Notes: a model not told the origin generated them from the letters alone. A stretch of DNA of 39,992 nt from Chthoniobacterales bacterium (GCA_044355525.1 JBIKXZ010000001.1:1-39992), one strand, 5' to 3'. Positions 1-34,967 are shown, counted from the first letter of the stretch. A program made the numbers and translations.

Positions 1-822
1 GAACCGCTTGCCCGCCTTGTCATCGAGAATCAGCCGCTGGCACATGATGAGCTTGAGGCAATCGGCCAGACTGGCCTGCGAACTCTCGAGCCGATCGCTG
101 GGAATGAGCTTCAGAAAACGCTGCACGGTCTGCGAGGCGGACGAGGTGTGCAGCGTGGCCACCACGACGTGACCGGTCTCCGAGGCCTGCAGCGCGATCT
201 CGGCCGTTTCACCGTCGCGGATCTCGCCGATGATGATGACATCGGGAGCCTGACGCAGGGCGGCCCGCAGCGCATTGGAAAAATCGATTTCATCGGTGCC
301 CATCTCCCGCTGCGAGACGAGCGAAGGGATGTTCTCCGGATAGACGAACTCGATCGGATCCTCGAAGGAAACGATGTGCTCGCGGCGGCGTTTGGCGCGG
401 TGCATGACCATCGAGGCGATGGTGGTCGACTTGCCGCTGCCGGTCGGACCGCAAATGAGGAAGAGACCGTTCTTGGCCTCGAGAAAAGCCTTCAGCGCGG
501 GTGGCGGGACTTTGATCGATTCGGGGGCCGGGATCTGGTTCGGGAGCAGACGCAGCACCCAGCGCAGGCGCCCCTTGGTCAGCATCTGGCTCACGCGGTA
601 ACGCCGCCCGTGCAGGTCGATGGCGCTGTCCACGCACCCAGGTTCCAGATGCTCCGGGACGGGAAACTCGTAAACCAGGGAGTCATAGACAAGCTGCCCG
701 TTGACTTTGTAGGCCAGCGGTTGGTTGGCTGTGAGGTAGAAATCGCTGACACGCGCATCCTGGCTCAATTCCTTGAAGCGTTGTCCGATGGGCGACTCGG
801 GGTCGAGATGGAGATAATTCAT
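1..822 (-). CDS. pilT: PilT/PilU-family type IV pilus retraction ATPase; the C-terminus runs off the window at position 1
   Basis: Absent from the ORF track because no stop lies in the window. Hand translation of the reverse strand from the ATG at 822-820 gives MNYLHLDPES...LFLICGPTGSGKSTT (Walker A), SFEDPIEF (Asp box), DVIIIGEIRD (Walker B) and ETGHVVVATLHT (His box). The + ORF 148..945 is its antisense shadow. Confidence 0.85.
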   Translation of the reverse strand, partial: MNYLHLDPESPIGQRFKELSQDARVSDFYLTANQPLAYKVNGQLVYDSLVYEFPVPEHLEPGCVDSAIDLHGRRYRVSQMLTKGRLRWVLRLLPNQIPAPESIKVPPPALKAFLEAKNGLFLICGPTGSGKSTTIASMVMHRAKRRREHIVSFEDPIEFVYPENIPSLVSQREMGTDEIDFSNALRAALRQAPDVIIIGEIRDGETAEIALQASETGHVVVATLHTSSASQTVQRFLKLIPSDRLESSQASLADCLKLIMCQRLILDDKAGKRF

Positions 823-838
823 GGGTGCGATGGTCCGG

Positions 839-3298
839 TCATGGACCCGGGGAGTTGGCAGGCGAGAGGGAAAAGACGATGGAACTGCTGTTCAACTGCA
901 AGTCCCTGGCCGAAACCGAGCCGTTCAAAGTGCTCCCGTTGTTGAAGGCGATCGAGGCGTTGGGTGCGAAGATGCGGCCGTAGACACTGCTGCCGGAGGC
1001 AACGTTGACGTTGGAGGAACTCCAGACATTGATTTGCAGCCAATCCGGGCGGTCGACGTTGCCGAAGACCGCGCCGTTGCTCAGGGCGAAGGAATTGCGG
1101 ATGTTGAGGATGACCCGCCCGACGATGACGACATCGCCGCCGCTGTTGAGGGTGAGGCTGTCGAAGTTGTAGACCACCGGGGTTTCCGGATCCGCCGCGT
1201 TGCCGAGGACGAACTTGCTGTTGTTGTTGGCCGTCATGTTTCCGTAGGTGCCGGGAAGCAGGGTGACCGAGCCGACGCTCGTTGTGTTGAGCGTGACATT
1301 GGCCACATTGCTCGCGCTAAGGGGACCGGCGACCGGCCCGCTCAGACTGAGGGATGCCGACGAAGTCTTGGGGGGGAAGGTGGCCACATTGAGCGGGGTC
1401 AGCGTGTAGCGCTCGCTGCGGCGGAAAATCTTGCCGGTGATATAGGAGTTGTTGTTGAAGGTTATGACATAGTTCGTCGGAGTGGTCGGGCCGGTGAGAT
1501 CGACGACCCGGGGGCTGGGACCTTGGCCTTCGACAATTCCGTAGATGCGGTTGGCGAATTGCGCGTCGTTCGCGGGCGTCCACTGCGGGATGTAGGGCGA
1601 GTTTTGCGCCACCCTCGGCGTCCCGGGCACGTAGAGGCTGCCGTTGATCACCGCGTTCTGGTTGTAGGTGATGTTCGCCACCGCGCCATTGGTCGGGTAA
1701 GCGACGGTCACGTTGCCGTTGAAGGTGCTGTTGAGCGTGGCCGAACCGACCAGGGCGCCGCTGGGGATACCCGAACCGGCAAAGGCGGGGCCGGTATAGA
1801 CGCGGACCGTTTCCGCACTCTGGTCGAACCAGCGGACAAGGTCAGGCGGTGGAACCGTCACGGCGCGCACAGCTCTCTGCTCCAGCACGCCGAATGAGGA
1901 GACCGAGAACGGCGAGTTGTAGGTCAAGCCGTTGACCGATGACGGAGCGGTGTTGTTCGTCGTATAGCGAACCGACATACCCGCGGCGCCCGTGGGAGGG
2001 TTGCTCATGACGACGGTGACCGCGAACGTCACCACTTGGTTGGTCGGCGAGACCAATGGCGCATCAAGTGCGGTCTTGGCGATCGAAACGGTGTTGGAGA
2101 CAACGGGGGAACTGGTGAACCACTCGGGCCGCGTGGAGACAGCCACGGCACTGATGGTCAGTGAATTGTTGGCTCCCCAAGCCGCAAGACCCAGGTCGAC
2201 CGGCAGCGGCGGGAAGGAACCGCTGAAAGACGGCCCGGTCTGCGCGGTGCCGGAGCTCGCGGGGTCGGTGCCGTCTGTCGTGTAGCGCACTTGGAAATTC
2301 GCGCTGCTCAGATAAGGCGGAGGAATACTCACATTGAGGGAAATGGTGGCCTGCAATGGCGAGAGCAACGGTTGCCCTGTCATCGAACCACCCGCTTGGG
2401 CGTAGGTCATCGAGGCGGGCGCATTGATCGCAACGGCCAGAGGCAGCGGATCGAGTTCGTAGCTCTCCGCGCAGGCAGGACTGTTGTAGTAGCGGCTGGG
2501 ATCGACGGAAACAGCGACTGTGGTGACCACGGAGCCCGGATCCACGGTGAAAGGTGAACCGACCCAAAGGACCCACGAGCCGCTCTCGGGGGATTCGGCT
2601 GTGCCGATGCGGTAGTAGACGATCGAACTGCCCGCGGGGTTGACCGAATTGTCGATCTCGACCGTCAGTGGAAAACCGGAAAGATCGAAGGTCTGACCGG
2701 CGGGATTGATCAACGGACAGGTCAACGGGGCCAGCACCGTGTTGGTCGTGCCCAACGTCGTGCCAGCATCGATCGTCCCAGGCTCGAAAACCGGCCTGCT
2801 CACTTCGCCCGGGGATGCCGGGGTGTAGGACCACAGCCAACTCGGCGCCGTCGCCGCCGGCGGACCACCGACCGGCGACGCCAGACCGCGGGCAAAGACG
2901 ATGCCGTTGGACGACCTTTGCACGGCGAACTGCGGACGGGGACTTGTTTCAAAACGCGCGCTCCACGCGAAATCCGTGGCGTTGGTCACGACCCGAGGAT
3001 CGAGAAAGGGTCCGATGGCGCCGGTCATTTCCGCGGCCACCCCCCCAGTGACCCGCTGCTTGAGCGCTTCGATGACATTACCCGAGTTGAGCGCCCCCTG
3101 CGAACCACCGGCGACCAAAAAAGCATCGATCGCATTGTTCACGATGGCCACATCCTGCTGCAGCTTGGCCAACTTGGCCGCATCGGGTCCTTCCTGGATG
3201 CGCGGCACCACCACCGTAGCCACCAGACCAAGAACAGCTACTACCACCAAAGCCTCCACCAGCGTGAAAGCCGCCGCGCATTTGGGCCGGGGTTTCAT
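839..3298 (-). CDS. Giant (819 aa) protein with a prepilin-type N-terminal cleavage/methylation signal, three internal repeat modules and a beta-helix-like C-terminal region
   Basis: The N-terminus MKPRPKCAAA/FTLVEALVVVAVLGLVATVVV is a class III (prepilin) signal with Glu at +5. Three modules carry the motifs IVYYRIGT, VRYTTDGTDP and VRYTTNNTAP, which resemble chitobiase/FN3-associated domains. The last ~300 aa are N/S/G/V-rich short repeats (GRIFAPNASIAFNNGSTLNGSVSA). ATG at 3298; the stop lies 16 nt before the pilT ATG. Confidence 0.8.
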   Translation of the reverse strand: MKPRPKCAAAFTLVEALVVVAVLGLVATVVVPRIQEGPDAAKLAKLQQDVAIVNNAIDAFLVAGGSQGALNSGNVIEALKQRVTGGVAAEMTGAIGPFLDPRVVTNATDFAWSARFETSPRPQFAVQRSSNGIVFARGLASPVGGPPAATAPSWLWSYTPASPGEVSRPVFEPGTIDAGTTLGTTNTVLAPLTCPLINPAGQTFDLSGFPLTVEIDNSVNPAGSSIVYYRIGTAESPESGSWVLWVGSPFTVDPGSVVTTVAVSVDPSRYYNSPACAESYELDPLPLAVAINAPASMTYAQAGGSMTGQPLLSPLQATISLNVSIPPPYLSSANFQVRYTTDGTDPASSGTAQTGPSFSGSFPPLPVDLGLAAWGANNSLTISAVAVSTRPEWFTSSPVVSNTVSIAKTALDAPLVSPTNQVVTFAVTVVMSNPPTGAAGMSVRYTTNNTAPSSVNGLTYNSPFSVSSFGVLEQRAVRAVTVPPPDLVRWFDQSAETVRVYTGPAFAGSGIPSGALVGSATLNSTFNGNVTVAYPTNGAVANITYNQNAVINGSLYVPGTPRVAQNSPYIPQWTPANDAQFANRIYGIVEGQGPSPRVVDLTGPTTPTNYVITFNNNSYITGKIFRRSERYTLTPLNVATFPPKTSSASLSLSGPVAGPLSASNVANVTLNTTSVGSVTLLPGTYGNMTANNNSKFVLGNAADPETPVVYNFDSLTLNSGGDVVIVGRVILNIRNSFALSNGAVFGNVDRPDWLQINVWSSSNVNVASGSSVYGRIFAPNASIAFNNGSTLNGSVSARDLQLNSSSIVFSLSPANSPGP

Positions 3299-3356
3299 GT
3301 CTCAATATATCCGCAACGGAAGCATTGCCAAGGGCTGCAAGTGATCCGGCACAGCT

Positions 3357-5972
3357 TCACATCAAATTATCCTGCGCGACCGCCAGAGTGCGGTTGAGGT
3401 CGGCCAGTAATTCCTCGGCTCTGATGGCATGGCGACCGGCCGGCGTTTCATAGTCGTAGGGAGGTTGGCCGGCTGCCATCTGAAGATCTGCGAGCAGGGC
3501 TCGGGCTACGCCGATCACATCCCTGAGCCTCTGTATGGAATCGAGCGTGATCATCGACTCGAGGTTGACCTGACGAAAATACCGGAGTTGGAATTCCAGC
3601 CACGCAAACGCCGGCTCCACCGCTGCCTCGCCCCCGGAAAGCCTTCCGTCCGGAGTGAAGGTAGGAGCTTCGGGCGGAACGCCTGGACGCAAAGGCACGA
3701 TGGACTCGGGCGTCTCCGCGATGCCTGGCGTCTTGGCCGGGTCGCCGATCAGGTAAGGCGTGATAAAAATGATCAAGTTGACCTTGTTGCGCTTCTTGCT
3801 CGTGTTCTTAAACAGGTAGCCGAGCCCCGGGATGTCCTGCAGAACGGGAATGCCACCCACCGTGTTGCTGTCGTCGACTTTTTCCAAACCACCGACGGCC
3901 AGCGTGTAACCGGAATTGACCTGCAATGCAGCGTTGTAGACGCGCTCGGAAGTGATGGGGTAAAGATTGCTGCCAGTGCCCAAATTGATGGGCAACTCAC
4001 CAACGATGGATGACACGGTAATGGCCACAGTCATCGCGATCTGGTTGTTGTTGACCAGCTTCGGGAGAATGTTGATCTGGGTGCCAGTCGGGAGGTAACC
4101 GAGCTGTCCCACCGTGGTGCCGCTGGTGCCGGTGGCTGAGACCGCAGTGTCGGTCCCGATATTCAATGGCGTGTTTTCGGACGAGGTGATCGCCACCTCG
4201 CGGTTGTTGAGGGTGAGCACACGCGGATATTGGACAATAGAGGTGTCACGGTCCTGCATGAAGGCCTGGAGTGTGAAGGAAAACTGGTCGAGACTCAGGA
4301 CGGCGCTGTAGGGAATCTGGCCTGAAATGGAGGAAACATTGTTGTCAACGCTGCCACCTTGTTGCGGCAGATACCCATCCAGCTGTCCGTCAGCAAATCG
4401 AGGAATCAAGCTTCCGCTGTTGGTCCCGGTTTGCCGGGCGAAATCGATGGAGCCGATATCCTCCCCACCGACACTGGCACTCCCACCGACGGTCAAACCC
4501 GTCCCGAAAGTGTTTTGCCAGTTGATCCCGATGTCTGTTTGGGGATTTTTCTTGGTTTCCAAGAACTTCACCTCGATGGCAATAAGCGCTTGCGGCTTGT
4601 CGACTTTGCTCAGGTATTCCGCCACCCATTTATGTTGGCGACGTGTGGCTACAACCCAGAGGAAGTTCTGGTCGGAGTTGTAGATCACTTGGGGCTTTTC
4701 CGGCGGAACGTAAACAGGCGAGAGAGTATTCGGCTGGCTGAGTCCCCGACCGCCCTCCGCGGGCGCGACCGCATCGGGTTGCTGTACGACCGCTCCCCCG
4801 GAAGTAACCACGGTGGTGGTCAGCTCCTTGCCTTCCAGCTCGCCGCGCGCGGTTTTGGAAAGCCGGTCGTAATCGACGATGGCACCCGCCGCACGTTCAT
4901 CCTGCCCCACCTCGTTCACTTGACCGGTCTTTTCGTCAACCAGCAGGGGAGGCAATCCGAGAATGGCGCGCACATCATTGACGATCCGCGGGATACGGTG
5001 GGCGAAAACTTTCTGAGAGTATTGCAGGGGCAAGTTCGGGCTGGTCAGCCCCTGCGGGAGGGTCGACGCAGCCGCAGAACCCGCTTCGCGCATCAACTCT
5101 GCGCGGAAGTCGATCCGATCGGCCGCATCGTGGCGCAACTGATACATGACCCCGACAAGCTCGTGCTCTTTCCTGCTGTCCTCGATTCTCTGGAGTTGCT
5201 CACGCCTCGCTCGCACCATCTCGTCGGTTATGTCGTTGGGCGTCAAAAACCAGACACCTTCGTCGAACTTCATGGAGATCCGGTATTGGCGCACCACGCT
5301 CTCCAAAGCCGCGAAAGGACTGGCCGTCATGCGGAAAGTGACCAGTTGCTGCGCCTGCGGGGAACTTTCCGGAATACTGACAAAAGGAATGCCCGCCGCC
5401 TCGGCAAGAAAGCGGAGAACATCGCGAAGCAGCGCACGGTCAAAAGTAAAGAGCTCAGGGGGCATGCTGCGCAGTTGCGCGGCCTTGCGGTTGCCCTCCG
5501 CTCCGTAATCGGTGCGCCCGACCGGTCGGCCGATGGCCACAAGCGGCTCGCTCTGGTTCCTCGCGGCGGGAGTGGGAAAAGCAACATCGCCAGTGCGAAG
5601 CGGCGGCATGGGCTCGGGTGGTGCCGGCGGAGAAGGATCAGGCAAAGTGTTGGCCGGTGCCGGAGCAGTGGGAGACGGGAGCGGCTCTGCCTCGAGCAAG
5701 GTGGTTCCCTCGGGAGGGGCGGGCGCAACAGACTGCTCTGCCGACGCCTGCGGGGTCGCCTCGGAGGTCTGCGCACCCAGACGTGCTATTCCCAGGCCCG
5801 CAACAAGCAGCAAGGCGACTGCCGCAATGAGCAAAGCCTTGCGCGGAATGATTTTTCGCGAGGGAGCTGCGCGGCCAAGGGACTTGGCATCTGAAGAAAA
5901 CTTAATCACGAGGCCGGTGTAGGGGACACTACTTCCAGAGTGAATCCTGCCCGAAGCACATCTGAAGGTCAA
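3357..5972 (-). CDS. Outer-membrane secretin (GspD/PilQ family) with a long N-terminal extension
   Basis: The C-terminal secretin signature is VGGIPVLQDIPGLGYLFKNTSKKRNKVNLIIFITPYLI. Upstream there is an STN-like segment (LRDVLRFLAEAAGIPFVSI), an N-terminal membrane anchor (ALLIAAVALLLVAGLG) and a Pro-rich linker. The start is uncertain: the codon at 5972 is TTG, and an alternative GTG lies at 5909. Confidence 0.85.
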   Translation of the reverse strand: MTFRCASGRIHSGSSVPYTGLVIKFSSDAKSLGRAAPSRKIIPRKALLIAAVALLLVAGLGIARLGAQTSEATPQASAEQSVAPAPPEGTTLLEAEPLPSPTAPAPANTLPDPSPPAPPEPMPPLRTGDVAFPTPAARNQSEPLVAIGRPVGRTDYGAEGNRKAAQLRSMPPELFTFDRALLRDVLRFLAEAAGIPFVSIPESSPQAQQLVTFRMTASPFAALESVVRQYRISMKFDEGVWFLTPNDITDEMVRARREQLQRIEDSRKEHELVGVMYQLRHDAADRIDFRAELMREAGSAAASTLPQGLTSPNLPLQYSQKVFAHRIPRIVNDVRAILGLPPLLVDEKTGQVNEVGQDERAAGAIVDYDRLSKTARGELEGKELTTTVVTSGGAVVQQPDAVAPAEGGRGLSQPNTLSPVYVPPEKPQVIYNSDQNFLWVVATRRQHKWVAEYLSKVDKPQALIAIEVKFLETKKNPQTDIGINWQNTFGTGLTVGGSASVGGEDIGSIDFARQTGTNSGSLIPRFADGQLDGYLPQQGGSVDNNVSSISGQIPYSAVLSLDQFSFTLQAFMQDRDTSIVQYPRVLTLNNREVAITSSENTPLNIGTDTAVSATGTSGTTVGQLGYLPTGTQINILPKLVNNNQIAMTVAITVSSIVGELPINLGTGSNLYPITSERVYNAALQVNSGYTLAVGGLEKVDDSNTVGGIPVLQDIPGLGYLFKNTSKKRNKVNLIIFITPYLIGDPAKTPGIAETPESIVPLRPGVPPEAPTFTPDGRLSGGEAAVEPAFAWLEFQLRYFRQVNLESMITLDSIQRLRDVIGVARALLADLQMAAGQPPYDYETPAGRHAIRAEELLADLNRTLAVAQDNLM

Positions 5973-6072: not shown

Positions 6073-6112
6073 CTTACGAACTTTTGTCGCGGCCGCGACA
6101 AAAGTTCGTAAG
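6073..6112. terminator. Perfect 40-bp palindrome (20-bp arms, GCGGCCGC centre) between the cobB stop and the secretin start
   Basis: cttacgaacttttgtcgcgg/ccgcgacaaaagttcgtaag is exactly self-complementary. It lies 14 nt downstream of the cobB stop on the - strand. Only a weak U-tract follows (cagucuuug). Confidence 0.5.
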
Positions 6113-7812: not shown

Positions 7813-8766
7813 TCACCGCAATCGCCTCCCCTGCGCACTGAACTTCGCCTCCGGATCATCATCAGGCAAGGGCGCCAGATCGATCGTCAACGGAAAATGG
7901 TCCGAGTAAACGCGCCGCCACGCCTCCCGGTCGCGCATGCCCTGCTCGTTGTGCACAGCCAGCGAGCGCGCTTCGATCTCGTCAAATCCGGCCAGCGGCA
8001 GGATGTGGTCGATCTGACGGTTGAAATGCACGATCGAACGCTGGTTGCCGCGCGGAGAAGGAAAACGCGCGAACCCGTCCGAGGTCCACAGCGACGCCTC
8101 TCCCGCCCGCGCATCGTGGTTGAAGTCGCCCATCACCACAATGTCGCCGTCTTCATCCGGTGACTCCCGCAAACTTTCCAACCAAGCGCGCACCGCCACG
8201 ATTTCTTCGCGCCGCCGCGCCATGTCATCCGGCTCGCGCCCGGCTTTGAGATGCAGGCAAACCACCCGGAAATCCGGACCACCGTTGCGACAGCGGAAGG
8301 TAGCCGTCACGGGAATGCGATGAAACAACTGCTCGCGGCGCAATGATTCCAACTCACCCGCGCCAAGCATCTCGACGCGCGAATGGTCCCAGATGATGCC
8401 CGGGGCAATGCGCCCGTCCTGCCCGAGGTAGCCGCTGCGCCCGACGGCGAATTTCCAATTAGGCCCCAGCCGCCGGCAAAGATCCTGCAGCGGCTTCGGA
8501 CCATCGACCTCGCAAACCCCGAGCACCTGCACGTCGAGACCGCGGACAAACTCGGCGATTGCTTGCAGATTTTCCTCCGTGCGTGGCGGGTCGTTGCGGT
8601 TGCCGAAAAACTCGAGGTTCCACCATCCGAGGCGCAACGGACGAAGACCGTCCGGGCCGGCAACCAAGGGCGCAACCGGCGACCGCCCGGGCGCACGCTC
8701 ATGCCAGAGCAGCACGCCGGCCACCACGCCGAAAATCAGGAGGACCACCAAAAGCGGCTTGTTCAT
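7813..8766 (-). CDS. Endonuclease/exonuclease/phosphatase (EEP) family protein with an N-terminal membrane anchor or signal
   Basis: Motifs: LGWWNLEFFG, FRVVCLHLKAG, VVMGDFNHD, IDHILP and YSDHFPLTIDL. The N-terminus is MNKPLLVVLLIFGVVAGVLLW. The ATG at 8766 is preferred over the track start at 8874. Confidence 0.8.
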   Translation of the reverse strand: MNKPLLVVLLIFGVVAGVLLWHERAPGRSPVAPLVAGPDGLRPLRLGWWNLEFFGNRNDPPRTEENLQAIAEFVRGLDVQVLGVCEVDGPKPLQDLCRRLGPNWKFAVGRSGYLGQDGRIAPGIIWDHSRVEMLGAGELESLRREQLFHRIPVTATFRCRNGGPDFRVVCLHLKAGREPDDMARRREEIVAVRAWLESLRESPDEDGDIVVMGDFNHDARAGEASLWTSDGFARFPSPRGNQRSIVHFNRQIDHILPLAGFDEIEARSLAVHNEQGMRDREAWRRVYSDHFPLTIDLAPLPDDDPEAKFSAQGRRLR

Positions 8767-8877
8767 GCAAAATACAAGTCCAAGGCACCCAAGCGTCCCA
8801 TCCCGCCGGGCGCGGCACAATGCGCGATTGGATGCGCTCCTGCCCCAACTCGCAACTCGCCACCCATTCGGCACGCC

Positions 8878-8925
8878 TTTCAGCTTTTCAGCTTTCCAGC
8901 ATTTCCGCTTTTCCCCATTTTCCCA
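8878..8925 (+). repeat. Six tandem degenerate octamers (TTTCMRCW) ending 2 nt before the ATPase ATG
   Basis: The units are tttcagct tttcagct ttccagca tttccgct tttcccca ttttccca, followed by cc and ATG (8928). The tract is pyrimidine-rich and occupies the position where a Shine-Dalgarno sequence would normally sit. Confidence 0.7.
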
Positions 8926-8927
8926 CC

Positions 8928-11279
8928 ATGTCTCCCGACCTCTACGAAAAGCTCGGACAGTTTTATCTCGGACGCGAAGTCACCCCCGACGGAAAACCGA
9001 CCGACGACCTGGTTCTCTACGATTCGAGCAACCTGACGACCCACGGAGTCTGCGTCGGCATGACCGGAAGCGGCAAGACCGGGCTCTGCATCGCGCTGCT
9101 CGAGGAAGCCGCCATGGACGGCATCCCCGCGCTGATGATCGACCCGAAGGGCGACCTCGGGAATCTGCTCCTTACCTTCCCGCAAATGCGTGGCGAAGAC
9201 TTCGCCCCGTGGGTCAGCGAAGAAGACGCACGCAAAGCCGGCGTGACCACGGAAGAGTTTGGCGCGAATGAAGCGGAAAAATGGAAGGACGGCCTCGCGC
9301 AATGGGGACAGACTCCGGAGCGCATCGCCGCGCTCCGCGAAAAATGCGAGATCGCCATCTACACGCCCGGTAGCAATGCCGGCATCCCGCTCTCCATCCT
9401 GCGTTCTTTCGAGGCACCGCCCGCCGACATCGCCGGTGATGCCGAACTCCTCGCCGAGCGCGTGCAGAGCACAACGTCCGGTCTGCTCGGACTTCTCGGC
9501 ATCGACGCCGACCCGCTGCAAAGCCGCGAGTTCAGCCTGCTCTCCGCCATCCTGCAGCAAGCGTGGAAAAACGGGCAATCCCCCGACCTTCCCGCGCTCA
9601 TCGCCGCGGTGCAGGACCCGCCTTTCGATAAAATCGGCGTCCTCTCGCTCGACGAATTCTTCCCCGCCCGCCAGCGCCGCACCCTTGTCATGGCGCTGAA
9701 CAACCTCCTCGCTTCGCCCGGTTTCGCCACGTGGCGCGAAGGCGAACCGCTCGACATCGCCCGCCTGCTGCACACGCCCGAGGGCAAGCCGCGCCTCGCT
9801 GTCTTGAGCATCGCCCACCTCTCCGATGCGGAGCGTATGTTTTTCGTCACCACCTTGCTCGAAGAAGTCATCGCCTGGATGCGCCGCCAACCCGGCACGC
9901 CGTCATTGCGCGCACTGCTCTACATGGACGAAATCTTCGGATACCTCCCGCCCATCGCCAACCCGCCGTCCAAAGGCCCGTTGCTCCTGCTCCTTAAACA
10001 AGCTCGCGCCTTCGGCCTCGGCATTCTCGTCGCCACGCAAAACCCGGCCGACCTCGATTACAAAGCGCTGGCCAACTGCGGCACGTGGTTCATTGGACGC
10101 CTCCAAACCGACCGCGATAAACAGCGCGTCCTCGAAGGCCTGGAGAGCGCCAGCGCCGGACGCGGTGCGGACCGCACCAAGCTCAACGAACTCCTCAATG
10201 CCCTGGGCAAGCGCGTGTTCCTCCTCAACAGCGTGCACCTCGGAGAACCGAAACTTTTTACCACGCGTTGGACCATGAGCTATCTGCGCGGACCTCTCAC
10301 CCGCGAGCAGATCCGCGTCTTGATGGATGCCGCCGAGCGTCCCGCCCCCGCGCCGGCGCCGCTCGCGCAGGCACCGGCCGAACCGGCGGCCGCTGCTTCA
10401 CCCGAACCGCCCGCCGCCGAACCCGGCGTCTGGCAACTTGTCGCCGACGGCACCGGTCAGGTTCTCCACCCCTCGCTCGGACTCCGCATCCGCGGCACCT
10501 TCGCCTCGCGCCGTCCTTCGGCCGAGGCGCCCGCCGAAGTGCTGGTCAGCGTTCCCTTCGGACCGGACGGCAAACCGTCATGGAAACACGCCAGCGTGGC
10601 CGGTGCCGCGCACCATTCGCATCCGCCTGTTGCGCACAGCGGGCCCGTCTTCGCGCCGGTCAATCCCGCAGCGCTGCAAGCCGCCCAGAATCAGACGTGG
10701 CAGATGGAAGCCCGCACCCAACTCGGCGAAAGCCTCGAGGTGCCCGTCCTGCGCGAAGGAAAAATCACCGGCGCCCCCTTCGAGACCGACGCCGAATTCC
10801 GCCTGCGCCTCGAACAAGCCGCCCGCGAGGAACGCGATGAAACGGTGCAGGTCATCCGACGCAAATACGAAACCAAGATGCGCACCGCCGCGGACAAAGT
10901 GAACCGCGCCCGCGAGGCCGTGGCGCGGCAGAAATCGCAGGCCCGCTCCGCGCAGGTGCAAACCGCGATCAGCGTCGGAACCTCTGTCCTCGGCGCCCTC
11001 TTCGGCAAGAAAGCCTCCGGACTCGGACACATCACCCGCGCCGGCACGGCCGCCCGCGGCGCCACGCGCGCGATGAAAGAATCCTCCGACGTCGGCACCG
11101 CCGAGGAAAAACTGGCCGACGCCGAAGCCGCAGCCTCCGAATTGGAAGCCGAAGTCGAAACCAAGATCGCCGAGATCCCCTCGCCCACCGCCGTGGTTTC
11201 GCATCCCGAAACCCTCCGCCTCAAACTCCTCCCCGCTACCCTGCGCATCGAGTCGGCCGGGATCCTCTGGACTGCCTAG
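8928..11279 (+). CDS. HerA/FtsK-superfamily P-loop ATPase (DUF853/YjgR-like architecture) with an Ala/Pro linker and a coiled-coil C-terminal region
   Basis: Motifs: THGVCVGMTGSGKTGLCIALLEE (Walker A), IDPKGDL, ALLYMDEIFGYLPP (Walker B-like) and VATQNPADLDYKAL. The C-terminus has a PAPAPAP linker and a charged helical tail. The ATG at 8928 (MSPDLYEKLGQFYLGRE) is preferred; the track ORF start at 8559 would overlap the divergent EEP gene. Confidence 0.7.
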   Translation: MSPDLYEKLGQFYLGREVTPDGKPTDDLVLYDSSNLTTHGVCVGMTGSGKTGLCIALLEEAAMDGIPALMIDPKGDLGNLLLTFPQMRGEDFAPWVSEEDARKAGVTTEEFGANEAEKWKDGLAQWGQTPERIAALREKCEIAIYTPGSNAGIPLSILRSFEAPPADIAGDAELLAERVQSTTSGLLGLLGIDADPLQSREFSLLSAILQQAWKNGQSPDLPALIAAVQDPPFDKIGVLSLDEFFPARQRRTLVMALNNLLASPGFATWREGEPLDIARLLHTPEGKPRLAVLSIAHLSDAERMFFVTTLLEEVIAWMRRQPGTPSLRALLYMDEIFGYLPPIANPPSKGPLLLLLKQARAFGLGILVATQNPADLDYKALANCGTWFIGRLQTDRDKQRVLEGLESASAGRGADRTKLNELLNALGKRVFLLNSVHLGEPKLFTTRWTMSYLRGPLTREQIRVLMDAAERPAPAPAPLAQAPAEPAAAASPEPPAAEPGVWQLVADGTGQVLHPSLGLRIRGTFASRRPSAEAPAEVLVSVPFGPDGKPSWKHASVAGAAHHSHPPVAHSGPVFAPVNPAALQAAQNQTWQMEARTQLGESLEVPVLREGKITGAPFETDAEFRLRLEQAAREERDETVQVIRRKYETKMRTAADKVNRAREAVARQKSQARSAQVQTAISVGTSVLGALFGKKASGLGHITRAGTAARGATRAMKESSDVGTAEEKLADAEAAASELEAEVETKIAEIPSPTAVVSHPETLRLKLLPATLRIESAGILWTA

Positions 11280-11328: not shown

Positions 11329-14300
11329 TCACTGCTGCTGCACTTCCAAACGCAGGAACTTTCGCTGCTCTCCGGGCAACACCGGAGCGGTGGCACGTCG
11401 CATTTCGTAATCACCGTGATCACTGACAAACTCGTCGATCACGCCATTGGCCAACCAATTGGCGTCCGTTAGTGCGTTTTTCCACTTCACTCCACCGCTC
11501 ACACCCTGCGTGTTTTTGCTGCGGCGATACTCCAGGCTGACTTCGCCTGGCGTCACATCGCCCGGTGTCGTTACGTCCACGGGCATAGCAACCGCCGAAG
11601 ACCCATCCGCCGGGCTCAGACCCATGAAATATTCGACAACGTTGGCCAATCCATCGCCGTCCGGATCGGCCCCCGGTGAAGGATCCGTCAAGTTCGGATA
11701 GCTTCCGATCCAGCTTCCGAAATCCGGCGTAGGGGCCTGCACCGTGAGCACGAAGCTGACACTGGCCGTGCGGGCACCGTCGCTCACCGTGACGAATATA
11801 GTCGCTTGGCCGCTTTGTCCGGCCGCCGGCGTGATCGTCATGGTCCGATTGTTCCCCGAGCCGCCGAACACGATATTGGCATCGGGAACGAGTGAAGTAT
11901 TCCGGCTCGAGGCCGTGAGAATGAGCAACTCCGCAGCAGTATCATCATCGGAGACGGTCACCGAAATGGGGCCGGCAACAGTGTCCTGCGCAATACTAAG
12001 GTGGGTGATATCGCTTATCGTCGGCGTGGCCGCCGGCGGAAGCGCAACCTGCACGACCACATCATCGATAAAGGCGCGTTTCGCCGAAGTTGACAAGGTG
12101 ACAGTGGAGCCGTTGGAAGCCCCCGCAAAACTGACCGTTTTCGCCTCGAAAGATCCAGACATCGTGCTCGTGTAGGACACCTGCTGCGTGACGAGACCAG
12201 GCACGCTCACCAGAATATTTCCTTCGTTTGTCGACCAACCTTTGACTTTGAAGGAGACCGTGAAGTTCCCGTTGCCACCTCCCAGACCAAGTGGCCGGCT
12301 TGTCATGGAGCCGGTGGCCGAACCGGTTCCCAATCTGACGGCGCCGCCAGCCTGATAGACGCGCGAGAGATCGGTCGAAGGGAAATTCGTGTTGCCGCCC
12401 CAAGCCGAACTGGAACCGGATGTGTTCGTGCTGTTCCCGGCAGTGATGGAGGAAAACTCCTCGCGGAAAATCTCGCTACCACCGCCAGCCCCCACAGAGA
12501 TGGTCAGCTGCTCGGAATCACTGCCGAAGGAATTTGCCGCACTGATGTTGACATTGAACGTGCCAGCCGCGGCGGGCACACCGGAAATCAGCCCGGACGA
12601 TGCATTCACGGACAAGCCCGACGGCAGACCACTTGCCGCGAAGGCGCTCGGCGAGTTATTAGCGGTGATCTGGTAGCTGAACTGCTGGCCTACCACAGCA
12701 CTCGCAGTCAAAAGACTGGTGATAACCGGAGGCAGCGCCGGAATATCATAGTCCGCCTCGAAATCATCCATCAGCATGCGCTCCCCGGTGCTGCGGAACA
12801 GCTCGATGAAAACCTGCTGACCGGCGGCGGGAGCGATCTCGACCGCGCCGGACTCGTAACGCTTGTAGACTTTGTCGCCGTCGAACCAGTTGCCGTTGGT
12901 CGAAAGCAGTGTCGTGTAGGTGGCGCCGCTGTTGGTGCTGTAGCGGATCTGGAAGTTGGGGGAAGGACTGTTGTCCCACCGGGCCAGGCTCATGGCGAAA
13001 CGCGTGATCGTGTTGGCCGTGACATAGCGCACATAGGTGTTGGCCACCGTATCGCTGCCCAAACGCCAAGCGTTGCCCCCGAGCGCCTCGGTTGTCTCCC
13101 GCAGCGCACTGTTCGCAGTGAAGTAGTCGCCGGAGGGCGCGTCCGCGTTGTTGGTGAATGTGCGCACTCCATAACCCGTGGTTCCCCCGCCCCACGAGGC
13201 GCTGGCGTCAAAGTTCTCGTAGTAGGTGGCGAAGCTCGGGGGTTCGTTCACCGCGACGATGATGTCCTCGCTCGTTGTTCCTGCGACGTCGGCCGCGCGG
13301 AAGGTGACATTGTACGAACCAAGCGGCGAGGCGTTGGTCCAGCGGAAGAAACCCGAGCCGTTGGTCGAAGTGAACGTCGCCCCCGCCGGGAGATTGACCA
13401 CCGACAATGTGATCGGATCATCGCCCACCGGATCGGAGGCATTGACCGGAAATTCCAGCGTCGTGCCGACAATGACCGATTGATTGCCGATCGGCGAAAG
13501 CACGGGCGGTTGGTTACTTTGCACCGTGATCGGGACCGTGATGGTGTTGGTCCCGTCCTTGTCCGAAGCGGAGAAGCTCGGATTGTATGTTCCGACGGGC
13601 TGGGCGGCGCCCCAAGTGAAGTTGCCGGATCCGGCCGTGGAACTGAAATTGGCTCCCGGCGGCAAACCGGACGCCGTCAACGTGATCGGATCGCCGTCAA
13701 CCGGATCCGTGGCCGTGACGGCGAAGTCCAGCGCGCGGCCGACCACCACGGACTTCGGTGCGATGCCATTGAAAACGGGCGGTGTGTTTTCGGCACAGCA
13801 GACCGGTTCGCTCGTCACGATCTCCAGCGACCAACCGCCGGATATGGTCCCGACATCCTCGGCGGCCGCATCGGCCACGTAGAGCGACCACAGACCATTG
13901 GCTTGAGCACCCTTGAACTCCGACAATGAACCGACGTAAGGACCAGCCGGAGCGGGTGCCGGCATCGTTCCAACGGCCCCGCTCGGCAGGTAAGTTCCCG
14001 AGACAACCGTTCCGCCGATTGTGCCGCTGGCCGAGTCGTCAAAGACCAACGTGGCATTCACCGCATCGGTGCCGCCACCAGCCGAACCCATCAGAGCCAC
14101 TTTGCGTCCGTCCGGCGACACCAGCACGATGTCGATATCCTCCGGATAGGTGTGCGACAATCCGGCAACCGTGACCTTGACCGCGGACACCGGTCCGGTG
14201 ACACCGGAAACATTGATGCTCGAGGGATACGGCGTGGACGTGGTGTTGTCGCGGATGGTGATGGCCGTGGAATTCGACCGCGTCGAGGTGGAAGTATTGA

Positions 14301-16632
14301 ATGTGCCCAGATTGAATTCATGCGGGATCGTGGCGACGACTTCGCCGCCGTCGCGGATTTGCAACACCGCGGAAATCGTCACGCCGCATTCGCCCTCGGC
14401 CACCAGTTCGTAATTGCGCGTCTGCGAAACACCGGGAGCAAGCACGCCGTAGCTTTGCGGACCGGTTGTAATGGCCGTGACACCGTTTTGGTCGAGCAAA
14501 GTAGCCGTGACTTCGGAAGATCCCAATGTGCCGGTGTTGCGCAGGGTGAAAGCGACAGTGACAATTTCGCCCGGGTCCGGCACCCCGTTCCCCGCACCGC
14601 AGGTCTCCGCAGCCAGCGCGGCACCGGTCGAGACAATGCGGGGCGCATCGGTTTCGGCACCGCCAGTCAAAACAACGGAGAACGCCTGTGCAGCAGTAGT
14701 CAGACTGCCATCGAGCGAGACCGTGATGGTGTAGGAACCGACCTGGGTAGGACCGGCCAGATAAACCTGCTCCACATTGTCCACGTTGTTCTTACCGCGG
14801 GTGGCCGGCAGAGCCATGGAGGCGTCCGTCCACGTGCCGACAAAGGGCATGACAAAAGGCTGATAGACCGTAGTGCCATCGGGCGCGGTGATTTTCAGGT
14901 CAAGATTATGGCGGAGATTCGGTGTGCGGCTGTCCGCGGCGGTTTGCGCAACACCGGCCGGATCGGTCCAGCAAAGCGTGGCACGGATCGGGCTGACGCC
15001 ATCCCACTTGAACGTGTAGGTCTGCGGCGCGGCTGCGGTGGCAACGGAACCTTCGATCAGTTTAGGAGTCGCGGGGAATTGCTTGTGCGCGAGGATGACA
15101 TCGGCAGCCGCCTTGGTATTGATCAACCCCCAACCGAATTTGTAATCGGGCCCGGCTGTCCCGAGGTCGTCAGCGGTATGAATGAGCAGCGCTTTGAGCA
15201 AACTGGCACGCATCAACTGACCGGAAAACTCCCGGCGGTAAAGTTGAGCGAGCAGCGCCGCGGATCCGGAAGCCGAGGGCGTCGCCATGCTGGTTCCGCT
15301 GTAAATGTCATAAGCGGTATCGCCCGTGCTGATCGGCGAATTCAAGCTGACGCCGTTGGCCACCACGTCCGGCTTGATGCGCCCGTCGTCGCAGGGGCCC
15401 CAGCTGGAGAAACCGGACATCGTTCCCGCAGCGAGTGAACGCACGCCGCCGCTCACCGCATCATTGATCGCACCGACCGTTAGGATGTTTTTCGCCAGTC
15501 CGTTGAAGGTGATGGACTGATACCCGCCTTTGGCCGTGAGTGAATCCTGCGAATTACCCGCGGCCCAGAACGGCATGTAGTAAGGCAGGTTGAAAACCAA
15601 GGCATCGGTGTCGCGCGCTTGCACCTCATAGCGCCCCATGTCAGCGGTGGAGTCATTGTAACCGTAGGAGTGGTTGGAGATCGGTATCTTCGAGGCATCG
15701 GCGGTGGCCGTCGCCGCACCGGAAGAGGTCATTTCGCTGTAGTCGCTGTTCCAATCCCACGAATCGATCGCCACGGATGGTGCCATTCCCTTGGCATTGG
15801 CGGTCACACCGGTGGCGCCGATTGTTCCGGCCACATGGGTGGCGTGATCGTCAACCGCCGCGGTTGAATTGCGATTCACCACCCGCGTGGTGCTGAACTC
15901 GCGATGCGTGTTCCGCACCGAACCCGCATCCCACACGCCGACCTTTACCGTGCTACCGTTCAGGTTGTAAGGAGCCGGATAAACCAAATTGGCGGCGCTG
16001 GAAATGGCCGCGTTGGCGTTCAGTGTCGTGCGGTAAAGCGGCCCCTCCGATCGGATGTCGTGGAGGATGGAAACCTTGTGGCCCGGCCCCTCGATGCGCA
16101 CCGGGATGCCGAGTTCCTTGGCGCGAGCAAGCACCGCGCGGTAGCGGGTTTGCTCCGCGGCAGCCATTTCCGCAGCCACTTGCACGCGTTGCCCGGGAAC
16201 GGCGAGGTCTTTGCCGGCCAGAATTTCCGGAATGGACCTATAAACAGGCGAGCCCTTCGGTCCGCGCCCGGCCGCACGAGAGCGGGCCGGAGGCGAAGAT
16301 GTCGCAGACAAACCTTGCCCATTTCCACTCGGCAAACTCACCGCGGTGTCATGCGCATTTGGCGACTGCGCATGGACTGCCGGCTGCGCCCCGGTCGAGT
16401 TGGCTGTTGAAGCCGCTCCGTCCAAGGATGCAGGAGCGGCAGCGCTCGACGTTGAAGAACTCTGCGGGTTCGCGGGAGCATCTGTGGCCGAGGTCGCGCC
16501 CGGAGAGGAAGCAGGGCTTTGCCTTCCTCCACCTGCCGGGGATGAGGCGGAAGTTCCGAGGAGCACAAAGACCGCGAAGCCAAGGATCAACAAGCAAGCC
16601 AAAGCGAGAAAAGGAGCTTGTTTGCCTTTCAT
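11329..16632 (-). CDS. Giant secreted subtilisin-like (S8) serine protease with a P-domain, repeated Ig-like and carbohydrate-binding-like modules and a shared C-terminal module
   Basis: The signal peptide is MKGKQAPFLALACLLILGFAVFVLLG (ATG at 16632). The catalytic triad motifs are VGVWDAGSV (Asp), DDHATHVAGTIG (His) and SGTSMATPSASGSAALL (Ser). The P-domain reads HTYPEDIDIVLVSPDGRKV...NGLWSLYVADAAAEDVGTISGGWSLEI. There are several He_PIG/cadherin-like repeats. The C-terminus reads ADPDGDGLANVVEYFMGLSP...FLRLEVQQQ. Confidence 0.85.
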   Translation of the reverse strand: MKGKQAPFLALACLLILGFAVFVLLGTSASSPAGGGRQSPASSPGATSATDAPANPQSSSTSSAAAPASLDGAASTANSTGAQPAVHAQSPNAHDTAVSLPSGNGQGLSATSSPPARSRAAGRGPKGSPVYRSIPEILAGKDLAVPGQRVQVAAEMAAAEQTRYRAVLARAKELGIPVRIEGPGHKVSILHDIRSEGPLYRTTLNANAAISSAANLVYPAPYNLNGSTVKVGVWDAGSVRNTHREFSTTRVVNRNSTAAVDDHATHVAGTIGATGVTANAKGMAPSVAIDSWDWNSDYSEMTSSGAATATADASKIPISNHSYGYNDSTADMGRYEVQARDTDALVFNLPYYMPFWAAGNSQDSLTAKGGYQSITFNGLAKNILTVGAINDAVSGGVRSLAAGTMSGFSSWGPCDDGRIKPDVVANGVSLNSPISTGDTAYDIYSGTSMATPSASGSAALLAQLYRREFSGQLMRASLLKALLIHTADDLGTAGPDYKFGWGLINTKAAADVILAHKQFPATPKLIEGSVATAAAPQTYTFKWDGVSPIRATLCWTDPAGVAQTAADSRTPNLRHNLDLKITAPDGTTVYQPFVMPFVGTWTDASMALPATRGKNNVDNVEQVYLAGPTQVGSYTITVSLDGSLTTAAQAFSVVLTGGAETDAPRIVSTGAALAAETCGAGNGVPDPGEIVTVAFTLRNTGTLGSSEVTATLLDQNGVTAITTGPQSYGVLAPGVSQTRNYELVAEGECGVTISAVLQIRDGGEVVATIPHEFNLGTFNTSTSTRSNSTAITIRDNTTSTPYPSSINVSGVTGPVSAVKVTVAGLSHTYPEDIDIVLVSPDGRKVALMGSAGGGTDAVNATLVFDDSASGTIGGTVVSGTYLPSGAVGTMPAPAPAGPYVGSLSEFKGAQANGLWSLYVADAAAEDVGTISGGWSLEIVTSEPVCCAENTPPVFNGIAPKSVVVGRALDFAVTATDPVDGDPITLTASGLPPGANFSSTAGSGNFTWGAAQPVGTYNPSFSASDKDGTNTITVPITVQSNQPPVLSPIGNQSVIVGTTLEFPVNASDPVGDDPITLSVVNLPAGATFTSTNGSGFFRWTNASPLGSYNVTFRAADVAGTTSEDIIVAVNEPPSFATYYENFDASASWGGGTTGYGVRTFTNNADAPSGDYFTANSALRETTEALGGNAWRLGSDTVANTYVRYVTANTITRFAMSLARWDNSPSPNFQIRYSTNSGATYTTLLSTNGNWFDGDKVYKRYESGAVEIAPAAGQQVFIELFRSTGERMLMDDFEADYDIPALPPVITSLLTASAVVGQQFSYQITANNSPSAFAASGLPSGLSVNASSGLISGVPAAAGTFNVNISAANSFGSDSEQLTISVGAGGGSEIFREEFSSITAGNSTNTSGSSSAWGGNTNFPSTDLSRVYQAGGAVRLGTGSATGSMTSRPLGLGGGNGNFTVSFKVKGWSTNEGNILVSVPGLVTQQVSYTSTMSGSFEAKTVSFAGASNGSTVTLSTSAKRAFIDDVVVQVALPPAATPTISDITHLSIAQDTVAGPISVTVSDDDTAAELLILTASSRNTSLVPDANIVFGGSGNNRTMTITPAAGQSGQATIFVTVSDGARTASVSFVLTVQAPTPDFGSWIGSYPNLTDPSPGADPDGDGLANVVEYFMGLSPADGSSAVAMPVDVTTPGDVTPGEVSLEYRRSKNTQGVSGGVKWKNALTDANWLANGVIDEFVSDHGDYEMRRATAPVLPGEQRKFLRLEVQQQ
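11516..11678 (-). repeat. Copy A of a 163-nt near-identical tract shared by the two protease genes
   Basis: Hand alignment with 17024..17186 gives 156/163 identical positions, including a 68-nt perfect run. The flanking C-terminal coding sequence is clearly more diverged. Confidence 0.85.
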
Positions 16633-16675
16633 AGCTGCGCTGGAGCAAAAGGGAAAGTTGCTCCGAACAATACAA

Positions 16676-16743
16676 AACATAGCCCGAGCAAGGCGTTCGA
16701 CAACCAGGAAGTAGTAGTCGGATGTGACAAGGCTGTCACAGGA
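16676..16743 (-). promoter_or_regulatory. Candidate promoter and upstream operator of protease 1
   Basis: On the - strand: TCCTGTGACAGCCTTGTCACA (16743-16723), then 19 nt, TTGTCG (-35-like, 16703-16698), 16 nt, and TATGTT (-10-like, 16681-16676). The leader also holds a 7-bp stem ggagcaa/ttgctcc (16642-16664). The same layout occurs upstream of protease 2. Confidence 0.45.
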
Positions 16744-16836
16744 CAAAAAACACGCGCAATTCTCTCTCCGAACCCACCGAGTCCATGAAGTCGGCGAAGC
16801 CGCCTGTGCGCGAGGGATGCGCCGGCAGGACCGCGG

Positions 16837-33128: not shown

Positions 33129-33941
33129 ATGCACATCATCCGATACCAAGACCCCACGGGAGCCATCCACTTCGGCTCGCAAAGAGCCGACGGCTCCTCT
33201 CTCCGCTGCACCGGCAACCTTTACGCCGGCCTGCAAGAGACCGGGGAGAAAGCTGACATCGCCAAACTCCTCGCACCGCTCGCACCGAGCCAGATCCTCT
33301 GCATCGGTCTCAACTACCGCCGCCATGCCGCCGAGTCCGGCCTGCAACCGCCCGAGCGTCCGGTCCTCTTCACCAAAGGCATCAACACGGTGCAGAATCC
33401 CGGCGAACCGATCGAGATTCCCGTCACCGCGGCCAGCACCGAAGTCGATTACGAATGCGAACTCGCCGTGGTCATCGGCAAGGCGTGCCGCAATGCCAAA
33501 GCCGCCGACGCGCTGTCTTATGTCCTCGGCTACACCTGCGGCAACGATGTCTCCGCGCGCGACTGGCAGTTGAAGTGGGGCGGCGGACAATGGTGCCGCG
33601 GCAAAACCTTCGACACGTTCTGTCCGCTCGGACCATGTCTCGTCACCACCGACGAAATTACCGATCCGCAGACATTGGCCATCCGAACAATTCTCAACGG
33701 CGAGACCGTGCAGGATTGGAACACGGACGACATGATTTTCAGCGTTGCCCAGATCATCGAGTTCCTCAGTGCGAGCAACACGCTGCCGGCCGGCACGGTC
33801 ATTCTCACCGGCACGCCCCACGGCGTAGGCATGGCGTCCAAGCCGCCGCGCTGGCTCAAGCCGGGTGACACCGTGACGATCGACATCGAACACATCGGCC
33901 AGTTGACCAACCCCGTCGTCCTCGAAGCCCCCCTTCCGTGA
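33129..33941 (+). CDS. Fumarylacetoacetate hydrolase (FAH) family protein
   Basis: ILCIGLNYRRHAAE, VDYECELAVVIGK, GYTCGNDVSARDWQ, GKTFDTFCPLGP, GTPHGVG. In context it is a candidate 2,4-diketo-3-deoxy-L-rhamnonate hydrolase. Confidence 0.85.
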   Translation: MHIIRYQDPTGAIHFGSQRADGSSLRCTGNLYAGLQETGEKADIAKLLAPLAPSQILCIGLNYRRHAAESGLQPPERPVLFTKGINTVQNPGEPIEIPVTAASTEVDYECELAVVIGKACRNAKAADALSYVLGYTCGNDVSARDWQLKWGGGQWCRGKTFDTFCPLGPCLVTTDEITDPQTLAIRTILNGETVQDWNTDDMIFSVAQIIEFLSASNTLPAGTVILTGTPHGVGMASKPPRWLKPGDTVTIDIEHIGQLTNPVVLEAPLP

Positions 33942-34963: not shown

Positions 34964-34967
34964 AACG

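Follow-up and report, generated by a model that had tools for sequence, protein, structure and literature searches.

Does a secretin gene that is followed directly by the gene of a giant pilin and by that of a retraction motor belong to an unfamiliar machine, or to a type IV pilus of which only the beginning is seen? The question is raised by a stretch of 39,992 nucleotides from a Chthoniobacterales bacterium (GCA_044355525.1, JBIKXZ010000001.1:1-39992), hereafter the window, in which the open reading frame (ORF) listing places a truncated PilT/PilU-family ATPase gene, an 819-residue pilin gene and a secretin gene on the minus strand of positions 1-5972. Our findings show that the locus is a complete, conserved gene cluster of Verrucomicrobia for a type IVa-like retractile pilus. 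It is no new type of machine for secretion or for fibres, and its large pilin forms a new, so far uncharacterised family inside the known class of modular pilins. The window is best explained as holding the opening three genes of this conserved operon of Chthoniobacterales (Verrucomicrobiota). A preliminary description of the window had placed the three genes almost back to back, and the ORF listing, Pfam and NCBIfam confirm this arrangement, with spacers of 58 nt between secretin and pilin (3299..3356) and of 16 nt between pilin and ATPase (823..838):

3357..5972, minus strand: secretin of the PilQ/GspD family, first gene of the operon (PF00263, 1e-35)
3747..4262, minus strand: secretin domain proper, residues 571-742 (PF00263)
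839..3298, minus strand: 819-residue modular type IV pilin, whole gene (ORF listing, Pfam, NCBIfam, AlphaFold2)
1..822, minus strand: PilT/PilU-family ATPase, first 274 of 353 residues, truncated by the contig end (T2SSE, TIGR01420 pilT_fam)

Assembly genes beyond the contig end

The locus was initially taken for a compact operon without assembly genes, the rest of which was expected past position 1. The second part of this view was correct and the first was not: the operon appears compact because the contig ends before the assembly genes, and identical and related contigs encode a PilM-like protein, PilN/O/P-like proteins, three pilin-like proteins, a PilC and a PilB-type ATPase beyond that point. 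Three Joint Genome Institute (JGI) metagenome contigs encode an identical 819-residue protein, one of them (L001) also with identical upstream genes. Past position 1, the identical contigs continue with the 353-residue ATPase and ORFs of 288, 203, 187, 241, 303 and at least 309 residues, and stop inside a 418-residue gene. The cassette is extended past the window edge by near-identical metagenome contigs and, besides these, by more than 20 relatives. Nine relatives on long contigs (L005, L006, L007, L030, L031, L032, L104, L105 and L106), whose large pilins are 35-84% identical to that of the window, all carry one common set of 11 genes and the two-component system. The fixed order in the relatives is: secretin; large pilin of ~810-845 residues; T2SSE ATPase of ~353 residues; ORFs of ~288, 203, 188 and 247 residues; a ~304-residue protein with an N_methyl motif; a ~418-residue pilin-like protein with a hydrophobic N-terminus that lacks Glu5; a ~144-residue protein with an N_methyl motif; a T2SSF platform protein of ~425 residues; a HisKA_3 kinase and a LuxR-type regulator. 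Profile searches of the Protein Data Bank (PDB) with the 304- and 418-residue proteins returned nothing past a weak match to alpha1. The platform protein, which is seen in the relatives only, is of the PilC/GspF type (T2SSF, 6e-39), and the HofC, GspF and PilC models all score 177-187 bits on it.

The 288-residue protein has no Pfam or NCBIfam match, and its family comprises 401 matches, all annotated as hypothetical. AlphaFold2 predicts an actin-like ATPase fold (predicted local distance difference test, pLDDT, 80; predicted template modelling score, pTM, 0.83), for which Foldseek returns PilM (5eou, 2ych, 3jc8_Ma) and the cytoplasmic part of EpsL/GspL (1yf5, 1w97, 4pht) at E-values of 1e-9 to 1e-11. 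Because the protein lacks any membrane or hydrophobic segment and the bitopic protein after it is encoded by a gene of its own, the arrangement is that of PilM and not that of a fused GspL, and from the predicted fold we regard the protein as PilM-like. Two bitopic proteins with a coiled coil and a third protein with a signal peptide follow, and these three fit PilN, PilO and PilP by gene position and membrane topology. Together, the four conserved proteins of 288, 203, 187 and 241 residues (L003:5486-8247 and orthologues) stand outside the Pfam and NCBIfam families.

Judged by its sequence, the enzyme encoded beside the pilin is an ATPase of the PilT/PilU family, in line with the PilT type proposed in the preliminary description. 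The TIGR01420 pilT_fam model scores 243.7 bits on the fragment and 282 bits on a full-length orthologue, which is below its cutoff of 319, while the GspE and PilB models reach ~120 bits on the full-length protein. Among PDB sequences, PilT and PilU match with 183 and 178 bits versus ~100 for PilB and ~92 for GspE. The catalytic boxes (Walker A, Asp box, Walker B, His box) are all intact, and the AIRNLIRE motif is degenerate (VVNIIRRG). A second ATPase of 717-744 residues with a CPQC...CPDC motif is encoded convergently after the regulator in L036, L043, L104, L106 and L107, that is, in every locus that reaches far enough. Scores of 390 bits with GspE, 377 with PilB and 161 with PilT suggest that this enzyme, seen in five relatives, is of the GspE/PilB type, and its presence led us to reject the PilT-like enzyme as the only motor. 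A GspE/PilB-type ATPase that is 85% identical to the cassette-linked one also lies on a 126.7-kb contig of GCA_041445565.1, where four small genes precede it. Two of these encode proteins of 148 and 129 residues with N_methyl motifs, which are candidate major or minor pilins encoded off the cassette.

The secretin has 871 residues when read from a TTG codon, or 850 with the start at 5909 that public gene calls use in identical contigs. It had been described as carrying an N-terminal extension of ~450 residues. Indeed, ~400-570 residues precede the secretin domain, but such a length is not unusual, since the GspD model begins to align at residue 401 and the PilQ of Akkermansia has 907 residues with its secretin domain at 650-876 (PMC4960237). 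No Pfam N-domain was recognised in residues 22-431. The GspD model TIGR02517 scores 141.7 bits and the PilQ model TIGR02515 127.3 bits, both below their own cutoffs. The Akkermansia muciniphila Amuc_1098 (PilQ) cluster is comparable in having a verrucomicrobial secretin of ~900 residues with a long N-terminal region (PMC4960237). However, the secretin of the window falls outside the Amuc_1098 family, because NF042912 reaches only 71.7 bits against a cutoff of 750, and this on the C-terminal part alone.

The gene content resembles that of the type IVa pilus of Pseudomonas, Myxococcus and Thermus: a secretin, a separate PilM-like actin fold, two bitopic proteins and a periplasmic one, a PilC platform, and PilT-family and PilB/GspE-type ATPases within one extended locus. 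In contrast to these systems, the cassette holds nearly everything in a single operon with the secretin first, its PilM/N/O/P-like proteins match no Pfam or NCBIfam model, a NarL-type two-component system takes the place of PilS/PilR, a small major pilin and PilD are missing from the locus, and the scores all stay below the curated equivalog cutoffs.

The large pilin and its exchangeable cargo

The 819-residue protein is, according to its predicted fold, a type IV pilin with a complete small pilin module, to which a long C-terminal cargo is joined. Its parts, all on the minus strand, are:

3113..3298, minus strand: class III signal (residues 1-10, predicted cleavage A10/F11) and alpha1 helix (residues 13-62)
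2888..3112, minus strand: globular head of the pilin, residues 63-137, two short helices and a four-stranded sheet (AlphaFold2)
2741..2887, minus strand: linker, residues 138-186, predicted to be disordered (AlphaFold2)
1790..2740, minus strand: three tandem immunoglobulin (Ig)/fibronectin type III (FnIII)-like beta-sandwich domains, residues ~187-503 (AlphaFold2, Foldseek, Pfam)
842..1789, minus strand: C-terminal beta-helix of the DUF7305/ice-binding-like adhesive type, residues ~504-819 (~310 residues)

The N-terminus reads MKPRPKCAAA/FTLVEAL with Glu at +5. Its early recognition as a prepilin signal is borne out by the N_methyl family PF07963, which matches residues 8-30, by a PDB profile search, which aligns residue 11 to residue 1 of mature pilins, and by the alignment of 59 family members, nearly all of which retain [GA]F[ST]L[VI]E with Gly or Ala at -1. 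The N-terminal GspG model (TIGR01710) matches residues 10-62, and the matches to PilE1, PulG and geopilin in the PDB profile search are confined to residues 11-68. Alpha1 carries Gly14 and Pro22 in mature numbering, and the N-terminus is the most GspG/PilA-like among the four pilin-like genes of the cassette. Within the window, this ORF is the only one with a class III motif. The AlphaFold2 model, built from 59 homologues with a mean pLDDT of 81, predicts the alpha1 helix at residues 13-62 and the strands of the head at 104-107, 113-117, 123-127 and 133-136. In the 59-member alignment the head and alpha1C are the most conserved portion of the family. The linker, with pLDDT below 50 over residues 138-172 and 174-186, is poorly conserved.

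The unusual size of the protein, which had drawn attention to it in the first place, is confirmed, and the model agrees with the earlier description of three internal modules and a beta-helix of ~300 residues. The Ig-like region is predicted with a pLDDT of ~85-95, and its domains 2 and 3 match CHB_HEX_C_1 and Fn3_assoc in Pfam (around residues 422-476). The best Foldseek matches in the PDB are tandem FnIII/Ig rods, e.g. those of fibronectin, of SiiE (an adhesin) and of GhpA (a grappling-hook protein). When the full 819-residue model was used as the query, only FnIII/Ig tandems appeared among the matches listed (top 50). On the beta-helix, DUF7305 matches residues 669-807 with 31.7 bits against a cutoff of 27, which is a marginal coverage, and the pAdhesive_15, Ice_binding and bactofilin beta-helix models match weakly. 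Neither a PDB profile search nor phmmer found a sequence match between the beta-helix and ComZ or any solved structure. The last ~210 residues (842..1540, minus strand) are a widespread module with 540 cluster representatives at E<=1e-3 and the consensus ...LNS..G...VP.G.YG.F.AN..S.F.LG.AG...PS.Y.F..LTLNS... This module often stands at one or the other end of large secreted proteins, which reach 4001 residues (P0236-P0372) and in which its partners are multi-Ig, Big_7, TSP3, RCC1 and Glucodextran_B domains. Several of the sampled proteins open with a Sec-type signal peptide and lack the pilin signal.

A homologue search with the 819-residue protein returned 103 proteins, nearly all of ~760-910 residues, and the source names that are available point to Chthoniobacterales/Verrucomicrobia. 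A profile scan of genome contigs with the pilin alignment contained at least three true relatives among the matches listed, which are dominated by a promiscuous YTTDGSDP pattern. A Verrucomicrobiales metagenome-assembled genome encodes a relative of at least 1487 residues (L008:5001-9461, plus strand) that runs off the contig and has no upstream secretin; it shares the pilin N-terminus, with 27% identity over the first 500 residues.

For a comparison of the position ahead of the PilT-like gene, 71 metagenome loci centred on the PilM-like gene were parsed. Where this slot is complete (~31 loci), it is always occupied by a protein with a class III signal and no fewer than 424 residues, of which the first ~160 residues are homologous to the pilin of the window and the C-terminal part differs. 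The cargo consists of Ig-like domains and a beta-helix in ~12 loci (813-875 residues), of DUF4114 in ~19 loci (424-489 residues) and of a beta-helix alone in one locus (526 residues). A small pilin was found inside the cassette in none of the ~31 loci. The adjacency of secretin, pilin and PilT-like gene is thus kept in relatives: pilin and ATPase are neighbours in every locus with a readable slot, and of the 20 loci that span 15 kb or more, 18 have the secretin beside them, co-oriented in the Chthoniobacterales-type clade and divergent in a second clade. This second clade (L058-L083, L099-L103, e.g. L059:7598-8872) has the DUF4114 slot pilin and no PilC within 10 kb.

In one relative, a 74.5-kb contig has two large-pilin genes in tandem between secretin and ATPase, for proteins of 783 and 549 residues (P0088, P0078). 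The 549-residue copy is a mosaic that lacks one Ig domain and half of the beta-helix: its first ~400 residues are, by eye, nearly identical to the 783-residue neighbour, and its final 148 residues share 86% identity with the protein of the window. It is either a product of recombination between lineages or an assembly chimera. The machinery changes far more slowly than the pilin, which fits surface exposure of the latter. In L031, the ATPase, PilC and PilM-like protein are 96, 93 and 95% identical to their counterparts and the pilin 52%; the values for L030 are 85% for the ATPase, 80% for PilC and 35% for the pilin.

The architecture, as modelled, follows the plan of modular pilins, in which a carrier pilin bears a grafted module. 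Raynaud et al. (2021) described more than 1,200 such proteins in 264 architectures and of up to 860 residues, which are likely exposed at the tip, including one IPR012902-PF13290 protein (PMC8179133). They are defined by a complete pilin module and modules that are not specific to pili, and the predicted fold of the 819-residue protein shows both. Streptococcus sanguinis PilB with its von Willebrand factor A module and PilC with its lectin module share with it the class III signal, the small complete pilin module and the linker, and likewise carry grafted modules that also occur outside pilus biology; they are proposed tip adhesins (PMC8179133). In contrast to them, the host is here a diderm with a secretin, the cargo of ~630 residues consists of three Ig-like domains and a DUF7305-type beta-helix, and sequence similarity ends with alpha1. 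CofB of enterotoxigenic Escherichia coli, TcpB of Vibrio cholerae, GspK of the type II secretion system and ComZ of Thermus are also oversized, low-abundance pilins; they have additional domains rich in beta structure and are located, together with further minor pilins, at the tip of the fibre (PMC8179133), and ComZ in addition has a beta-solenoid. However, there is no detectable sequence relationship to them (PDB profile and phmmer searches gave alpha1 or nothing), and the extra domain of ComZ and GspK is inserted in the pilin fold, whereas that of the window pilin is appended C-terminally after a disordered linker.

Where in the fibre the large pilin would act

We consider it fairly probable that the 819-residue protein is a modular, low-abundance pilin with an adhesin role, which a retractile pilus of type IVa-like build would display, probably at its tip. 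Gene content and order, their conservation, the pilin signal, the predicted folds and the swapping of cargo on a constant module were obtained here, and from them we infer how the protein would be processed, where it would sit in the fibre, that it would act as an adhesin that binds a ligand and that it would be retracted. A prepilin peptidase encoded elsewhere would cleave after Ala10, and alpha1 would serve as its anchor in the inner membrane. Few copies of the pilin module would then enter the fibre, most likely at the tip or close to it together with the three minor-pilin-like proteins, while the body of the fibre would be made of a small major pilin encoded elsewhere. Extension might be driven by the PilB-type ATPase via PilC and the PilMNOP-like complex, and the fibre would exit through the secretin with the slender rod of the cargo passing the channel first and then binding a surface or polymer, before the PilT-type ATPase would retract it. 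That the fibre is retractable and displays a large adhesin module was already one of the options in the preliminary description. The compact operon without assembly genes that was also described there is not upheld: the findings correspond to what that description had itself named as its refutation, a family of minor pilins or tip adhesins within a complete locus for a type IV pilus. The pilin would fill the same functional niche as the PilY1/PilC tip adhesins of type IVa pili, where a large adhesin on a minor-pilin complex at the tip is pulled by PilT. PilY1, however, is not a pilin and has a beta-propeller, whereas the adhesin-like rod of the window is fused directly to a pilin module.

Several observations weigh against this assignment. 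The extension of the locus, in which PilB, PilC and a prepilin peptidase were to be sought, yielded PilC and a PilB-type ATPase, and these as well as the two-component system are seen in relatives only. Neither a prepilin peptidase nor a small major pilin was found within ~10 kb of the cassette in any locus, and the 40-kb window likewise holds neither a small major pilin nor PilD. The cassette thus has no small pilin or peptidase of its own, and it is the 819-residue protein that bears the most GspG/PilA-like N-terminus. The scores of the components stay below the cutoffs of all curated equivalog models for type IV pili and type II secretion. The PilN/O/P identity of the 203-, 188- and 247-residue proteins found no match in Pfam or NCBIfam at E<=1, and neither a PDB profile search with the 247-residue protein nor an hhalign comparison of the alignments of the 203- and 188-residue proteins gave a match in its support.

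Because of this N-terminus, with its Gly14 and Pro22 and the TIGR01710 match at residues 10-62, a role as main subunit has to be weighed, although we think it unlikely. The large pilin would then be the principal polymerising subunit of a "bottle-brush" fibre or of a short pseudopilus of few subunits, a rod of ~20-35 nm reaching through the secretin would serve as a retractable grappling hook, and the three other pilin-like proteins would form a priming or tip complex. The ~31 loci without a small cassette pilin, with a PilT-adjacent slot that never holds fewer than 424 residues, agree with this proposal. The pore of PilQ/GspD secretins is sized for the bare pilus, however, and a folded module of ~70 kDa on each subunit should not pass such a channel. 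Furthermore, major pilins are often encoded apart from the machinery, and the 148- and 129-residue N_methyl proteins of GCA_041445565.1 lie beside a close paralogue of the PilB-type ATPase. The long linker, predicted to be disordered, could let the cargo splay from the filament core, and Raynaud et al. leave a location in the body possible given a flexible linker; against this, the large pilins known so far, CofB, GspK, ComZ and S. sanguinis PilB, are all of low abundance (PMC8179133).

Slightly less likely still is a stricter version, which is suggested by the fact that the cassette never encodes a small pilin. Here the large modular pilin would be the sole polymerising subunit of a short retractable "grappling-hook" pseudopilus, and lineages would swap the cargo to change the target.

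A type II secretion system, in which the GspG-like large protein would be the pseudopilus piston that expels neighbouring S8 proteases, is improbable. This reading had been put forward for the giant proteases in the window:

11329..16746, minus strand: S8 subtilase, 1805 residues, one of a pair with proprotein-convertase P-domains and He_PIG/Big Ig repeats
16837..21678, minus strand: S8 subtilase, 1613 residues, second of the pair with P-domains and He_PIG/Big Ig repeats
8559..11279, plus strand: HerA/DUF87-like P-loop ATPase, 906 residues, between the proteases and the pilus operon

The match of the pilin N-terminus to the GspG model, the higher score of the secretin with GspD (141.7 bits) than with PilQ (127.3 bits) and that of the distal ATPase with GspE (390 bits) than with PilB (377 bits) speak in favour of type II secretion, as do the subtilases 5-18 kb from the pilus genes in the window, L005 and L031. 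However, the proteases adjoin the pilus operon only in these two closest relatives; they and the HerA neighbour are missing in L006, L007, L030, L032, L105 and L106, and with the synteny not conserved we dropped the protease linkage. A GspC-like PDZ protein was not detected among the cassette proteins with Pfam or NCBIfam. Two features argue further against type II secretion: the cassette always includes a gene for an ATPase of the PilT/PilU family in its core, and the actin-like protein is free of transmembrane segments and not joined to the bitopic one, as in PilM plus PilN and not as in a fused GspL.

Least probable of all is that the class III signal, by analogy with archaeal binding proteins that carry such a signal, would be a mere inner-membrane anchor or sorting signal of a protein displayed or released outside any filament: ordinary Sec-exported proteins carry the same beta-helix cargo and bacteria of the Planctomycetes-Verrucomicrobia-Chlamydiae (PVC) group encode very many proteins with prepilin-type N-termini, but a complete conserved pilin head is predicted after the helix, the pilin module is the portion conserved across cargo variants, and the gene has a fixed place, flanked by those of the secretin and the PilT-like enzyme.

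Likely operon boundary, neighbouring genes and implications

Three further features of the window concern the limits of the operon and its surroundings:

6073..6112, minus strand: terminator-like hairpin with a perfect 18-bp stem, CTTACGAACTTTTGTCGC GGCC GCGACAAAAGTTCGTAAG, in the interval between a SIR2 gene and the secretin
3304..3331, minus strand: sigma-70-like hexamers TTGGCA-16-TATATT within the 58-nt gap, weak evidence for a promoter
33530..35548, minus strand: 672-residue ORF with coding-like G+C content at third codon positions (GC3) and no Pfam match

The hairpin is likely a terminator that marks the operon boundary. The sigma-70-like site has 10 of 12 matches and ends 5 nt ahead of the ATG of the pilin gene; if real, it would mean that the pilin has its own, almost leaderless transcript. 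With one such site found versus 1.4 expected by chance in the region, we rejected it as a promoter. The remainder of the window contains the HerA-like ATPase, which is syntenic in L005, L031 and L104, the two giant S8 subtilases and metabolic genes.

What distinguishes the cassette is a fixed slot with swappable cargo and no major pilin encoded in the cassette itself. Type IV pili of Verrucomicrobiota have hardly been studied, and the cassette provides a defined, conserved locus that is widespread in freshwater and soil metagenomes. Four PilM/N/O/P-like proteins can be flagged as missed by current family libraries. With one fixed slot and interchangeable cargo, the cassette is therefore a natural system for asking how modular pilins traverse a secretin and how the tips of pili gain new binding specificities.

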